Source: an uncultured Deinococcales bacterium
GTDB lineage: Bacteria > Deinococcota > Deinococci > Deinococcales > JAAFIG01
Assembly: GCA_964247135.1 (NCBI GenBank)
Contig: CAXTTL010000001.1
Location: 51,557 to 115,556, forward strand
Direction: 5' to 3'
DNA length: 64,000 bases
Position numbers: made by a program
Part shown: in pieces, positions 1 to 64,000 of the stretch
How positions within the stretch are numbered: position 1 is the stretch's first letter
Layout: each line of letters begins with the position of its first letter

Positions 1-3000
1 GCCAAGTCCGACACCACCCCGCCCGATTTTGAACGCGGTGTGATGAACGTGATCCACAAAGCCAATCTGCCAATGGAAGAAATCGCGTTTCTCGCGCACG
101 GCACAACCGTTGTCATCAACGCCTTGACCGAACGCAAAGGCGTCAAAACCGCTTTGATTACCACGAGCGGTTTTCGGGATTCGATTGAAATTGCTCGAGG
201 CAACCGCCCCGATTTTTTCAATTTGTTTTACCAGAAACCCGAGCCTTTTGTGCCGCGTTTTTTGCGTCAAGAAGTGCCTGGGCGCATGTCGCCGCAAGGT
301 TTGGAGCGCGAGGCACTTGACTTGTCGGGTTTGCCTGCCATCTTGAAGGCGTTCAAAAAAGAGGGTGTTCAAGCGGTGGCAATTTGCCTGCTGCATTCTT
401 ACGCCAACCCTGCCCACGAGCAAGCCGTGCTCGAGCGGGTGCATGAGTTGTGGGCGGATGTGGCGGTGGTCGCGTCGCATCAGATCACCCGCGAGTGGCG
501 CGAGTACGAGCGCACCAATACCACAGTGCTTTCGGCGTATGTGCAACCGATTGCCGAGCGTTACCTCTCGAGGTTGCAGGCGGGCGCGGAGGCTGAGGGT
601 TTTGCTGGGCAGATGTACATCATGCAGTCCAATTGCGGGGTGGATTCGCTCGAGCATACGCGTGAAATTCCAATCACGATGGTTGAGTCTGGTCCTGCCA
701 GTGGGGTTTGGGGCGCGGCGGAGCTTGGACGTTTGTTGAACGAACCAAACGTCTTGGCGCTGGACATTGGTGGTACGACCGCGAAGTGTTCCTTGATCGA
801 AAATGGTCGGGTGCGGGTACAGACCGATTACTGGATTGAACGCACGCATCAGTCGGCGGGTTATCCGATTCAAGTGCCTGTGCTCGACATCGTGGAGATC
901 GGGCAGGGCGGTGGCAGCATCGCCTGGGTGGACGAGTTTGCCAAGTTGCACGTCGGTCCCAAATCGGCAGGGGCGCAACCAGGTCCTGCCGCCTATGGGC
1001 GCGGCGGCACAAATGCCACGACCACCGACGCAAACCTGGCGCTCGGGCGCATCAACCAGCATTATTTTTGCGGTGGCGAAATCAAAGCCGACATGAAAGC
1101 CGTGGGCAGTTCGCTGGATGCCGTCGCCAAGCAATTGAAGGTTTCTCGGCTCGAGGCGGCTCGAGGGATTGTGCGCTTGGCAAACCACAACATGGTCAAT
1201 GCTTTAAAACTTGTCTCGGTCAACCGTGGTCACGACCCCAGGGATTTTACGTTGGTCGCCTTCGGTGGTGGCGGCGCGATGCACGCGGTGGCACTCGCGC
1301 AAGAACTGGGCATCAAAAAGGTCGTGATTCCTCGAGCCGCCGATGTGTTTAGCGCTTGGGGCATGATGATGAGCGACTTGCGGCGCGATTTTTTCATCAC
1401 CAAACTCGCCAGCTTAAAAGCCGAAAATGCCGCCGCGCTCGAGGCACTGGTGCGCGAGACCAGCGACAATGCGCTGGCACAATTCAAGCTCGAGGGCATC
1501 AAAGCCAGTCAGGTCAGTTTTATTCGTTATGCCAAGCTTCGTTACGAAAATCAGGAACATACCGTCGAAATTGCGCTGCCCGATGCGAAAATCAGTGCCA
1601 AAACGATTCCTGCAATCATCGAAGATTTTCATGCCTCGTATGAGCGCGAGTACACCTATCGCCTGAACGCTCCCGTCGAATTCGTGGGCTTGCATCTGGT
1701 GGCTTCTGCCGAGGTGGGCAAGCTCGAGCCGATTACGTTGCCGTGCAGCAAACGCAAACTCGAAGCGGCGCATAAAGGGACGCGCCAGGTGGATTACGCG
1801 CTCGAGGGCGTTCACATTGCCGATATTTACGATGGCGATCTGCTCGAGCCTGGCATGAAATTTGTTGGACCTGCGATCATTGAAACCAGCGGCACGACGA
1901 TGGTGATTCATCCTGGCAATCAGGTGCGGATGGATGACTATGGTCATGTTCACATCACGGTCACGGCGGCAGTGACCAAAGGAGGTCGCAAATGAAAGCC
2001 AAAACCAAAAAAACCAGCACTTCAAAATTTGACCCGATCACGCTCGAGATCATTCAAAATTCCTTGCAAGCCATCAGCGACGAGATGTTCGCCGCGATGC
2101 GAAAAACCGCCATGAGCGCGATCATTTACGAGGTGCTCGACATGGGCACGGGCATCACGGACTTTGAGGGCAACCTGGCGGCATCGGGCGCGGGTATTCC
2201 AGCCTTTGTGGGTGTGCTCGACAAAGCCGTGCAAAAAATTCTCGAGCTGAACCCTCGAGCCGACATTCACCCAGGGGATGTGTTCATCACCAACGACCCG
2301 TACTTTGGTGGGGTCACGCACCTGAATGACGGGGTGTTGGCGATGCCAGTTTTTGTTGGCAACCAGATCATTGCCTGGACGGCGAACATCGCGCACTGGC
2401 CCGATGTCGGCGGTCTGGTGGCGGGTTCGATGTCCAACGATGCCAAAGAGATTTTTCAGGAAGGTTTGCGCTTGCCCGCCATCAAACTGATTGACCGTGG
2501 AGTGCCGATCAAAAGCGTCATGGAGATCATCAAAACCAACAGCCGACTGCCAGACTTTTTGCAGGGCGACCTCTGGGCGGGCATCGCGGCGGTGCGGGTG
2601 GGCAACAAGCGCTTGCTCGAGTTGGTCGAAAAATACGGGCAGGATACCTTCGTGGCGGGCATGAAGCACTTTATGGATTACGGCGAGGCGATCTCGAGAA
2701 AGGCGCTCAAGTCATTGCCCAAAGGCACGTTTACACTTTCTGAAGAGCAGGACAGCGGTGTGGTGTACAGCGCCACCATCACGATCACTGACAGCGAATT
2801 TAAGGTAGATTTGCGTAACAACCCAGACCAGGACGCGGGACCAAACAACTCCTGCCGTGACGGGGCGATGATCGCCGCACAGATGATCTTTAAAAACCTG
2901 ACCGACCCGCACGGGGTGGCGAACGGTGGCACGTTCCGCCCGCTCAACCTCATCACGCGTAAGGGCAGTGTGTTTGATGCCAACCCACCAGCCGCATTTG

Positions 3001-63000: not shown

Positions 63001-64000
63001 CGTGATGCGCGGCGCGTCCGAGCGACCCGTCGGCGGCGGGATGACCGGCGTGACCCTGGGGCGCTCGCCACGGTCGAAAGCTCGGGTGGCGCTCAAACTC
63101 GGGAATAAATCGTCGAGGATGGCTTGCAGGGTGTCGCGGATTTCTTCGGCGCTGGGGCGTTCGACAGGCATCTTGCGCAGGCAACGCATGACGATTGCCT
63201 CGAGGTCGGGGCGCAATTCTGGGCGAATGTCGCGCAGCGGTGTGGGTTGGTCGTAAACGTGTTTGTTGGCGGCTTCGCCGAGGTTGCGCACCTCGAATGG
63301 CACCAGACCGGTAAAGACGTGGTACATGACCACGCCGAGCGAGTAGACATCGCTGCGCTCGTCGCCCTCCTTGCCCATGCACTGCTCTGGTGAAATGTAC
63401 TTGGGCGAGTTGACCGGACCCGCGTCGTCGTTGCTGGCTTGGGCGGAGGCGTTGGCGACCAGCCGCGCGATGGCAAAGTCCGAGAGCTTGACGCGGTAGG
63501 AGCCGCCCGCCGTGGCTTGCAGCAAAATGTTTTCGGGTTCGATCTCGCCGTGAACCACGCCTTTGCGATGGGCGAATGCCAGACCGTCGCTGGCTTGGCG
63601 CATGAAGTCGAGCGCCATGCGCAAATCTGGGCGAGCGCCGTCACGGGTTTGGCGCTGCAACCAGGTGCTTAACGACCCGTCGTTGACGAATTCCGCGACT
63701 TGATAGTGAAAGTTTTGATCCTCGCCGTAATTGAGAACCCGCGCAATGTGGTTGTGCTCGAGCGAGACCAGCGTCTCGAGTTCGGCAAAGAATTGATTTT
63801 GAAATTCGGCACTCGCGCCGCCCTGAGGATGCAGGATTTTGAGCGCCACCGTAATTAGCGTCTTGTCGGCAACGGCACGAAACGTCTGCCCAGTTTTTCC
63901 AGGGCGCAGGGCATCCTCGAGCTTGTAAGGTCCGATGTTTTTGCCGATGAGTTTTTCGCTGATGACGTTGTTCATTGCGCCGATACTCCAGGTTTCACAT

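Follow-up and report, generated by a model that had tools for sequence, protein, structure and literature searches.

To our knowledge, the role of the cyanobacterial palindrome HIP1 (GCGATCGC) has been a thirty-year question studied in a single phylum. Another way in which a short word can shift oligonucleotide counts is known from Dcm and Vsr acting on CCWGG in E. coli, where repair is biased at the methylated word; the effect is small, depletes the T-containing neighbours of the word and requires Vsr. Cultured relatives of the bacterium described here are naturally transformable. HIP1 is associated with orphan methylases and with a methylation-dependent gain in transformation (PMC13756078), its sites are conserved between genomes (PMC5861425), and shorter alternates are found in cyanobacteria, among them GCsGC (a 5-mer) and rCCGGy (a degenerate 6-mer) (PMC4390886; PMC5861425). 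The uptake sequences USS and DUS, in turn, leave measurable traces in protein composition (Findlay and Redfield 2009, PMC2817400).

For the hexamer CTCGAG, active orphan m6A methyltransferases are present in three of four cultured members of the order, with 94–99.5% of the sites modified (Blow et al. 2016, supplementary file 3). M.Mru1279II of Meiothermus ruber, M.Mch9957IV and M.Mhy14884I are orphan CTCGAG N6-adenine methyltransferases of this kind, and Nocardia possesses an orphan CTCGAG methyltransferase too, with sites clustered near dnaA (Blow 2016). The published table lists no CTCGAG methylation for Meiothermus silvanus (Blow 2016, supplementary file 3). That paper reports no genome-wide excess of the word, and our literature search, which covered journals outside subscription, returned no report of a CTCGAG excess or of over-represented palindromes for this phylum.

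An exact hexamer in excess

We analysed a stretch of 64,000 nucleotides from an uncultured Deinococcales bacterium (henceforth referred to as the window) together with the whole assembly (G000; 5,091,702 bp in 386 contigs, GC 52.7%, 84% complete). The window contains 353 copies of CTCGAG, while 100 dinucleotide-preserving shuffles gave 11.64 ± 3.70 copies and never more than 23.

1..64000, no strand: CTCGAG copies, n=353 (5.5 per kb), in genes (all frames) and intergenic DNA; first copy at 194-199

Across the genome the word occurs 33,925 times against 1,369 expected, an observed to expected ratio (O/E) of 24.8 that corresponds to 6,663 sites per Mb or about one per 150 bases, and among all hexamers it ranks first in both frequency and over-representation. 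The genome-wide survey's note had given the same total, 658 sites on contig C1 and an excess of about 25 times; these values, like nearly all of its other numbers, could be reproduced, and the excess is real. It lies above the roughly 16-fold genome-wide excess that Xu et al. 2018 used as the threshold for HIP-type palindromes, both in the genome (24.8) and in its non-coding DNA (34).

The excess is confined to the exact hexamer. The 18 words that differ from it by one mismatch have 96–2,216 copies each and the NTCGAN words other than CTCGAG 121–2,188, i.e. the neighbours remain at background level. No single flanking position holds more than 0.065 bit. In non-coding DNA a weak, symmetric preference in the flanks persists. 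G at position -1 is favoured in nine of the ten enriched genomes sampled, and the preference for A at -3 is restricted to genus g1.

Where CTCGAG is abundant, the remaining 6-bp palindromes are broadly purged. The excess is not a side-effect of this ban, as the other permitted palindromes reach only 1–1.5 times expectation in G000. GAGCTC, which is made of the same two codons as CTCGAG, is absent from the genome (0 copies). G000 carries a SacI-type restriction-modification operon, which plausibly explains the missing GAGCTC. We considered the methylase of this operon (C320, with a 74% identical ortholog in G157) as the CTCGAG agent and rejected it, since it is a SacI-type enzyme that fits the lack of GAGCTC/GRGCYC. 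The operon as a whole is also contradicted as the cause of the excess: at 75 loci of other phyla that hold a relative of the SacI-type nuclease, none exceeded 1 CTCGAG per kb and the word was depleted (O/E 0.22), although many palindromes are depleted there, so that these loci do not fix the specificity of the nuclease. Among viral contigs with three CTCGAG within 90 nt, the matches listed were mostly G+C-rich and rich in GAGCTC as well.

Genes, intergenic DNA and the genomic landscape

Using 4,267 ORF calls of our own to separate coding from non-coding DNA, we found 6.53 CTCGAG per kb in the former and 7.46 in the latter (7.79 in the survey), in agreement with the earlier claim of enrichment in all frames and between genes. 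Eighty-five percent of the sites fall within ORFs, in every frame (17,628, 4,490 and 6,655 sites), and three synonymous shuffles of the same genes gave only about 3,070, 335 and 590. Each frame is thus well above its shuffles, as had been claimed, by 6- to 13-fold. The strongest enrichment is that of non-coding DNA, with 5,182 sites against the 151 expected from its own composition (34x), and the density is highest directly after stop codons (11.7 per kb in the first 30 nt). Because of this non-coding excess, and because all three frames exceed the synonymous shuffles, we agree with the survey in placing the cause at the level of the DNA word and not of codons or peptides.

The imprint on the proteome is nevertheless large. 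Leu-Glu is seen 22,899 times against 9,658 expected, with 77% of it encoded as CTCGAG, and Ser-Ser 10,233 times against 6,324, with 56% of it written TCGAGY (58% in the survey); a surplus of this kind in peptide composition is one of the features by which USS and DUS are recognised. That Leu-Glu is the most over-represented dipeptide, as the survey stated, is true by excess count, where it is far ahead, but by ratio it comes second (2.37) to Cys-Cys (2.45, with only 232 counts).

Two ordinary sources of a frequent word can be judged on these data. A by-product of codon, dipeptide or codon-pair preference, with CTC and GAG or Leu-Glu favoured as such, would account for the weight of frame 0, which holds 61% of the coding sites, and for the 1–3 CTCGAG per kb of G+C-rich relatives that favour these two codons. 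It is refuted by the enrichment of non-coding DNA and by the out-of-frame counts, frames 1 and 2 exceeding their shuffles 13- and 11-fold; the absence of GAGCTC speaks against it too, and so does the finding that CTC is not favoured for Leu outside the word, 17,577 of the 39,872 CTC codons (44%, the share that the survey gave for CTC and GAG codons) lying within CTCGAG. We regard this explanation as highly improbable. Even less credible is a dispersed repeat with CTCGAG as the core of a REP, a MITE or a small mobile element. The copy number and the density peak after stop codons would suit such a repeat, but the near absence of information in the flanks refutes it, complementarity at positions ±2 to ±8 equals expectation, most sites lie in ORFs in all frames, and related genomes differ at the sites by substitutions and not by insertions (see below).

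Along the genome, 3-kb windows hold 19.96 ± 5.73 sites and never fewer than 3, which matches the survey (19.9 ± 5.7). The counts are over-dispersed (variance 32.9, mean 20.0). Close pairs are scarce, with none at distance 6, 11 at distance 8 and about half the plateau value below 30 nt; in non-coding DNA this deficit is limited to distances below 10 nt. Within 1 kb the spacing shows no signal besides a 3-nt period. In the window, three stretches stand out for their lack of sites:

50001..54000, no strand: A+T-rich island (GC 0.40-0.42) that includes the longest site-free gap of the window, 51005-52927
33513..34971, minus strand: second-longest site-free gap, 1,458 bp, spanning a solute-binding-protein gene (ORF 33527-34891, SBP_bac_1)
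19987..21137, no strand: site-free gap of 1,150 bp with small unnamed ORFs and the start of a 1,330-aa ORF

The island encodes XisH, XisI, a DUF433/DUF5615 pair and a Uma2 nuclease (Pfam matches) and is probably recently acquired DNA in which CTCGAG is still below the genomic density. A+T-rich islands in general have fewer sites, yet above expectation. The half density that the survey had assigned to plasmid-like contigs was borne out on C42 (RepA/ParA/SSB), C75 (TraG/coupling protein) and C137 (ParB/primase), plasmid or conjugative contigs with 3.3–3.6 CTCGAG per kb. A tRNA and Rfam search of the 64-kb window gave no matches.

Relatives, methyltransferases and other candidate agents

The word is not restricted to one genome. 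The 18 other genomes of the family have 4.3–6.8 CTCGAG per kb, so that all 19 of 19 reach at least 4.3. The survey had presented the enrichment as a trait of the whole uncultured Deinococcales family, which holds for every genome available, but the trait is not private to it. Comparison with 345 other genomes of the phylum revealed enrichment outside the family, which is new with respect to the survey. The strongest cases are two species of genus g23 in family f3 (G156 and G157), with 8.6 and 7.0 CTCGAG per kb and O/E values of 29–32 in samples, while their congener G158 is at expectation (0.3 per kb). In the large genus g7 of the same family f3 the excess is mostly absent or reversed. Intermediate levels were found in samples of five genomes of the same order (G042, G193, G180, G265 and G250; O/E 6–11, with 1.5–3.4 sites per kb in non-coding DNA), and several lineages of the phylum have 2–3.6 per kb with their non-coding DNA enriched too.

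Between relatives the sites are conserved above background. In a small sample (12 loci of six genomes with about 75–85% DNA identity, compared with 20 kb of the window) CTCGAG was retained in 126 of 215 site comparisons (38–76% per genome), against 24–36% for other hexamers. The survey's statement that sites outlast control hexamers is therefore upheld, but the size of its figures (79% against 44%) is not matched in this smaller sample. Substitutions account for 84 of the 89 non-conserved sites and gaps for five, which argues that CTCGAG was not spread by insertion.

The survey had found no cognate methyltransferase. This stands for the present family but not for the cultured relatives, where the orphan m6A enzymes mentioned above are active; a TaqI-like gene is present in G025 at the published place. 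No ortholog of the enzyme was found in the 84%-complete G000 assembly. In 16 family genomes 20 candidate loci were compared and gave none either, with identities of no more than 28% apart from a single stretch of 59 residues at 36%, and 120 relatives of the enzyme from a protein collection showed only catalytic-domain similarity to G000. We also searched G000 and the family with the Pfam models PF07669, PF01555, PF00145, PF02384 and PF02086. A C5 methyltransferase was not found in G008, the N4/N6 beta class was not found in the closed genome G011 or in G015, and the Eco57I/TaqI class was not found in G015; the D12-class genes of the family form several unrelated groups. Three methyltransferase proteins of G000, compared with 41 genomes, matched 4 (C36), 13 (C178, mostly distant paralogs) and 6 (C320) of the 18 other family genomes. 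In all, no methyltransferase family or ortholog group was seen in every family genome, most of these assemblies being 57–94% complete.

Other known users of such a word were searched for as well. That Vsr and XhoI-type genes are missing, as the survey had reported, held in six and four family genomes, respectively. The XhoI-type nuclease (PF04555) was found in none of four (G000 and three others), in a search without a positive control, and the word is enriched rather than avoided, at odds with a target of XhoI-type restriction-modification. Vsr was found in none of six, including the closed G011, with a positive control that matched in E. coli, B. subtilis and Caulobacter; the deamination neighbours TTCGAG (1.78x expectation) and CTTGAG (1.17x) are not depleted in G000, and a repair word of the Dcm/Vsr type was consequently rejected. 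A Chi-type hotspot read by RecBCD was also rejected, given that RecC (PF04257) was found in none of three family genomes, again including the closed one, and in none of five genomes in all, and that the word is palindromic. The HIP1-linked competence factor ComFB was found in none of 41 genomes, and the searchable papers report no uptake or recombination specificity for CTCGAG in this phylum.

Possible causes and comparison with described systems

The explanation that we favour, tentatively and with somewhat less than even confidence, is that CTCGAG is a genomic watermark of the HIP type, kept up by a bias that favours the entire word at fixation, and marking self or kin DNA. A putative DNA-handling process would read the complete 6-bp word and give sequences that contain it a small fixation advantage, which we infer to be about ln(25), roughly 3 scaled units, per site. 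Copies would then accumulate where the cost to protein or regulation is low, typically at positions within genes that read Leu-Glu, Ser-Ser/Ser-Arg or xCT-CGA-Gxx and at any place in intergenic DNA. Copies already present are lost at about half the rate of other hexamers. If the same process operates in all the enriched lineages, it would be a property of the order, weak to moderate in several lineages and extreme in this family and the two g23 species. In these restriction-system-rich bacteria the word might mark DNA for uptake, recombination or protection, a role that appears most likely by analogy with HIP1, whose sites, when methylated, promote natural transformation. Exchange drive alone seems a weak engine, because at one site per 150 bp the uptake bias gained with each extra site should be small. 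Further points against this explanation are that no methyltransferase was seen in every family genome, that the TaqI-like enzyme of the relatives was not found in the family, that Meiothermus silvanus showed no CTCGAG methylation, that ComFB was not found, that the searchable papers report no uptake or recombination specificity, and that spacing within 1 kb has no signal besides 3 nt. A wider version, which we consider possible but doubtful, is that HIPs are a convergent strategy of heavily DNA-exchanging, restriction-rich bacteria, and that Deinococcales raised CTCGAG independently or through a transferred reader. Such a reader, as yet undescribed, would work without the TaqI-like methylase and be active in some members of a genus (G156/G157) but inactive in another (G158), and should therefore be findable by a contrast of gene content.

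We judge two further explanations to be unlikely. The word could serve the chromosome itself, independently of DNA exchange, if an abundant binder (a nucleoid-associated, repair or defence protein) gave a small fitness gain per site, e.g. through compaction or as a nuclease stop or self signal. The conservation of sites, their fairly even density, the deficit of close pairs, the weak symmetric flank preference in non-coding DNA and the presence of the word on plasmids would all be in keeping with such a binder, but no candidate protein was found, the windows are over-dispersed rather than regular, there is no periodicity except that of 3 nt, the preference for A at -3 is limited to one genus, and a reader of the RecBCD type is excluded by the lack of RecC. 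Alternatively, methylation-guided or sequence-specific short-patch repair might turn near-cognate heteroduplexes into CTCGAG without any function, a model of the kind that Elhai 2015 proposed for HIP1. Orphan CTCGAG methylation is indeed known in relatives, and the excess is present in every class of DNA, with a lower density in mobile and in A+T-rich DNA, both probably of more recent arrival. Against neutral repair, Vsr is missing from the family genomes searched and the published methylation is m6A, which yields no T:G mismatches. Furthermore, there is no specific depletion of any of the 18 neighbours. Those that fall short of expectation either include CTAG or differ from the word by a transversion, whereas those that differ by a transition reach 1.2–1.8 times expectation; of these, the ones changed at an outer position fall within the spread of the other NTCGAN words. 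To exceed all 18 of them 25-fold, CTCGAG would probably need every type of mismatch to be corrected.

Whatever the agent, CTCGAG illustrates how far a force at the DNA level can reach into the proteome, with about 13,000 of the 22,899 Leu-Glu in excess. The word occupies 4% of the genome, and genomes rich in it will bias k-mer binning, codon models and gene finders. Unless methylated, such DNA would be reduced by XhoI-type enzymes to pieces of about 150 bp.

Among described systems, the Dcm/Vsr word differs in that Vsr is missing here and the neighbours of CTCGAG are not depleted. The orphan methyltransferases of the order recognise the same word, but no ortholog of them was found in this family. 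Like CTCGAG, the USS and DUS of Pasteurellaceae and Neisseriaceae are genome-wide words enriched by a DNA-level bias that marks the proteome; they are, however, 9–12 nt long and non-palindromic, occur about once per kb and have flanking structure, and their uptake bias is experimentally proven. HIP1 belongs to another phylum and is another word, of 8 rather than 6 bp. CTCGAG is denser (6,663 per Mb against 300–2,700 for HIP1) with a lower O/E (25 against 55–228), the mark that relatives place on it is m6A, set by a TaqI-like enzyme, and not m5C or Dam methylation, and, unlike HIP1, CTCGAG has no conserved methylase that we could find in the Deinococcales family where it is densest. HIP1 and the alternate cyanobacterial HIPs nevertheless share with CTCGAG a short G+C-rich palindrome in excess in all frames and in non-coding DNA, and HIP1 also shares the conservation of sites between genomes, the purge of most other palindromes and the targeting by orphan methyltransferases (for CTCGAG in cultured relatives only). 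CTCGAG would thus be a second, independent HIP case, with a different word, an intensity graded across the order and an on/off contrast within one genus, and the cultured transformable relatives, together with the three cultured members of the order in which an orphan methylase modifies the word, offer a comparative and experimental handle on the origin and the readers of such words.

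An exact hexamer and its imprint on the proteome

Within the window CTCGAG occurs 353 times, against 11.64 ± 3.70 (maximum 23) in 100 dinucleotide-preserving shuffles. The source assembly as a whole (5,091,702 bp in 386 contigs, GC 52.7%, completeness 84%) holds 33,925 copies versus 1,369 expected from base composition (O/E 24.8); the word ranks first of 4,096 hexamers in both frequency and over-representation, the runners-up on both lists being words that overlap CTCGAG itself. Its 18 one-mismatch neighbours number 96–2,216 copies each and the 15 other NTCGAN words 121–2,188, while TCGA outside CTCGAG is at expectation (20,685 versus about 19,800 by our own arithmetic). 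The excess belongs to the exact hexamer, and because it is limited to this word and the flanks hold at most 0.065 bit per position, a dispersed repeat is ruled out as the source of the sites.

On 4,267 non-overlapping ORFs (minimum 120 codons) from a crude gene calling of our own, site density was 6.53/kb in coding DNA and 7.46/kb in the remainder. Coding sites were divided by frame into 17,628, 4,490 and 6,655, compared with about 3,070, 335 and 590 after within-gene synonymous codon shuffling (three shuffles), and non-coding DNA (GC 47%) carried 5,182 sites versus 151 expected from its own composition. Leu-Glu reached 22,899 occurrences where 9,658 were expected, 77% of it spelled by CTCGAG, and Cys-Cys (2.45, n = 232) was the sole dipeptide with a slightly higher observed/expected ratio. 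The word contains 44% of all CTC codons and the same share of GAG codons, and TCGAGY encodes 56% of Ser-Ser. These figures agree almost exactly with the frame, shuffle and dipeptide counts of the genome-wide survey's note, and codon use is excluded as the cause.

The spacing of successive sites shows no period up to 1 kb other than the 3-nt one of coding DNA, and 3-kb windows hold 19.96 ± 5.73 sites (minimum 3), over-dispersed rather than regular. Pairs less than 30 nt apart are at about half the plateau level; at distance 8 they are almost absent (11), and at distance 6, where a pair would create GAGCTC, there are none. In non-coding DNA the pair deficit is confined to distances below 10 nt (47 pairs versus 117). 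A weak symmetric context, G at −1 and A at −3, is also seen in non-coding DNA. Genome-wide, the 8-bp palindromic extensions fall below the prediction from the margins (CCTCGAGG 641 copies versus 1,441, TCTCGAGA 952 versus 1,351, GCTCGAGC 4,225 versus 5,054), despite the separate preferences for G at −1 and for C at +1. By our crude ORF ends, density is maximal directly 3' of stop codons (11.7/kb in the first 30 nt), with a spike of 182 sites in the arrangement stop codon, two bases, CTCGAG (an offset of 5 nt from the first stop base), versus about 40 at nearby positions.

Distribution among lineages and within the genome

All 18 other genomes of the family, from five genera, carry 4.3–6.8 sites/kb. 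We scanned 364 genomes of the phylum (including one unpublished genome, G327, which is a single row of the count and on which no claim rests), 345 of them outside the family. By our own reading of the table, two of the 345 exceeded 4/kb, both from genus g23 of family f3.

CTCGAG in three species of genus g23
G156: 16,253 sites in 1.9 Mb; 24-kb sample, 9.4/kb
G157: 24,536 sites in 3.5 Mb; 47-kb sample (GC 51%), 7.5/kb, non-coding 9.4/kb
G158 (5 contigs, 95% complete): 683 sites in 2.3 Mb; 96-kb sample (GC 50%), 0.30/kb versus 0.24 expected

Many further lineages hold 2–3.6/kb. Samples from five genomes (G042, G193, G180, G265 and G250; GC 46–67%) gave O/E values of 6–11, with 1.5–3.4 sites/kb in their non-coding DNA (4–13 kb sampled in each). 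The large genus g7, also of family f3, is depleted in CTCGAG (mostly 26–1,000 sites in 2–6 Mb) and in GAGCTC too, the opposite of the source genome's family. Given the enrichment in G156 and G157 and the intermediate lineages, the family-wide sharing noted in the survey stands, but not as a family-private trait: enrichment varies in degree across the order, with its extremes in this family and in some members of g23.

Conservation was assessed on 12 loci from six family genomes (G002–G005, G008 and G010) aligned to window positions 1–20000 at about 70–88% DNA identity. CTCGAG of the source genome was identical in the aligned hexamer in 126 of 215 comparisons (38–76% per genome), versus 24–36% for all other hexamers; of the 89 remaining comparisons, 84 differed by substitution (33 at a single base) and 5 involved gaps. 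The word is therefore kept about twice as well as others and arises through point change rather than insertion. The preferential retention described earlier is partly reproduced, at percentages lower than the 79% versus 44% then given and in a smaller sample.

The lowest densities in the source genome, 3.3–3.6/kb, were found on contigs bearing plasmid or conjugation genes, as the survey had indicated.

Low-density contigs
C42: RepA, ParA, SSB
C75: TraG/VirB4-like ATPase and type IV coupling protein
C137: ParB, primase, transposase

Window features around the longest CTCGAG-free stretch (51005–52927)
44583–50036 (+): 1,817-aa ribonucleotide reductase large-subunit gene, split by an intein that contains LAGLIDADG homing-endonuclease domains
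50071–54203: A+T-rich island (GC 0.40) with XisH, XisI, a DUF433/DUF5615 pair and a Uma2 nuclease
54725–56722 (+): 665-aa Baseplate_J-domain protein adjoining the island, which may be part of a phage tail-like or contractile injection cluster

The gap lies inside the island; together with the plasmid and conjugation contigs this indicates that DNA which probably entered the cell more recently is poorer in sites, though still above chance. The XisH, XisI, DUF433/DUF5615 and Uma2 families are typical of cyanobacteria.

Purged palindromes and the search for an agent

In the source genome 38 of the other 63 hexamer palindromes fall below 0.35 of expectation and 12 are at 25 copies or fewer (GAGCTC 0, GGGCCC 1, CGGCCG 3); the tetramer GGCC has 380 copies (O/E 0.016). 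Across 11 related genomes the purge parallels CTCGAG enrichment, as a pattern rather than a test.

Median O/E of the other 63 palindromes
Strongly enriched (source genome G000, G005, G011, G156, G157): 0.14–0.25
Intermediate (G042, G193, G180, G265, G250): 0.21–0.60
Not enriched (G158): 0.78

The purged sets differ between the source genome and G157 (e.g. AGATCT, TGCGCA and the tetramer GGCC), which fits changing sets of restriction systems. In 15 of the 19 family genomes GAGCTC, which is CTCGAG with its two halves exchanged, was counted 25 times or fewer; G157 has 30 copies and G156 has 2. The loss of GAGCTC is plausibly accounted for by a predicted operon.

Contig C320, 1061–2985 (407–2331 of extracted locus L051), minus strand: SacI-type restriction-modification operon, D12-class adenine methylase then 364-aa nuclease, stop and start overlapping; also in loci L053, L056 and L125

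Pfam RE_SacI scores 29.7 bits against the 364-aa protein (cut-off 19.3), in which a D...ExK motif is conserved. Seven of the 19 family genomes, and also G157, carry the pair, with 74–93% identity among methylases and 48–88% among nucleases; the G003 nuclease contains an internal TAA. Since GAGCCC and GGGCTC together have only 10 copies in the source genome, and GGGCCC one, the avoided word may be GRGCYC. The species collection holds 381 relatives of the nuclease, mainly from Nostocales, Chloroflexota and Armatimonadota; the mostly Nostocales relatives and the island families suggest a gene pool shared with cyanobacteria. In 75 loci bearing such relatives CTCGAG is depleted (O/E 0.22, never above 1/kb), and the system is rejected as the cause of the excess.

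No XhoI-family nuclease was found in the source genome, G011, G009 or G012 (a search without positive control), nor Vsr in six family genomes, RecC in three or ComFB in 41 genomes. Methyltransferases of the C5 class occur in 18 of 19 family genomes (none in G008), of the N4/N6 beta class in 17 (none in closed G011 or G015), of the Eco57I class in 18 (none in G015), of the N6_Mtase class in all 19, but of various kinds (Type I-like or large and fused), and of the D12 class in 18 (none found in G006), in at least four unrelated groups; no ortholog group spanning the family was found among these classes in the 19 genomes. Proteins of about 1,100 aa (two cut by contig ends) recur in at least eight family genomes of three genera (G001, G002, G004, G007, G011, G012, G014 and G017), with an N-terminal N6_Mtase match (profile positions ~7–140, 36–40 bits), and may represent a conserved large fused methylase.

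The survey's failure to find XhoI-type and Vsr genes was repeated in the four and six family genomes searched, while CTCGAG methylases do exist at the level of the order. Blow et al. 2016 (PMC4752239, file 3) list active Type II m6A enzymes, with no partner nuclease, in cultured relatives.

CTCGAG methylation in cultured relatives (PMC4752239, file 3)
Marinithermus hydrothermalis: M.Mhy14884I (Marky_0034), 94.6% of sites modified
Meiothermus chliarophilus: M.Mch9957IV, 94.1%
Meiothermus ruber: M.Mru1279II (Mrub_2385), 99.5%
Meiothermus silvanus: no CTCGAG enzyme or modified sites listed

The main text of that paper does not discuss the three enzymes; it does report another orphan methylase for CTCGAG, from Nocardia, where sites cluster near dnaA. 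The coordinates given for the M. hydrothermalis methylase match those of a gene in a closed genome of family f4.

G025, C1:33943–35286: 447-aa Eco57I + TaqI_C protein, between aminotransferase and release-factor genes

This protein has no ortholog in the source genome, where its best match, at 27% identity, covers the catalytic domain in a protein of 1,502 aa, and its 120 relatives in the collection matched nothing closer in that genome. Among 20 loci of the Eco57I class, drawn from 16 family genomes, there was no ortholog either: identities reached 28% at most, apart from one stretch of 59 residues at 36%. CTCGAG is therefore an orphan methylation target within the order, and by homology the family of highest density would seem to lack this enzyme or to have replaced it.

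Interpretation and comparison with HIP1

Any explanation must invoke a force that responds to the entire hexamer, operates on all classes of DNA in these cells, favours gain and slows loss. Vsr-like repair is excluded because its gene is missing from the six family genomes searched, the chemistry in relatives is m6A and the neighbouring words are not depleted. With codon use, repeats and Vsr-like repair excluded, what remains would be a bias in fixation that arises from selection or from drive and is linked to a reader of CTCGAG. Following the precedent of HIP1, the highly iterated palindrome of cyanobacteria, we tentatively rank first the possibility that CTCGAG serves as a watermark of self or kin DNA in exchange or protection. 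A binding function on the chromosome seems unlikely, and we consider a neutral repair bias towards the word equally doubtful.

Subscription journals aside, we found no report of the CTCGAG excess in the literature on HIP, on iterated palindromes or on this phylum, nor of any over-represented palindrome in the phylum. The kind of phenomenon is already known, since short alternate HIPs occur in cyanobacteria (PMC4390886). HIP1 is the closest precedent of the watermark proposed here. Orphan methylases and conservation of sites across genomes are reported for it (PMC4390886, PMC5861425), and its methylated sites are reported to raise transformation (bioRxiv 2024.09.10.611283). In a phylogenetic analysis HIP1 was correlated with genes for pili and competence, the correlation with methylases not being significant (PMC13756078). 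New here are the phylum and the word, the contrast within a genus, a density at which the word makes up 4% of the genome, and the extent of the imprint on the proteome. Many purged palindromes beside a single hugely enriched one is also the picture in HIP1-bearing cyanobacteria.
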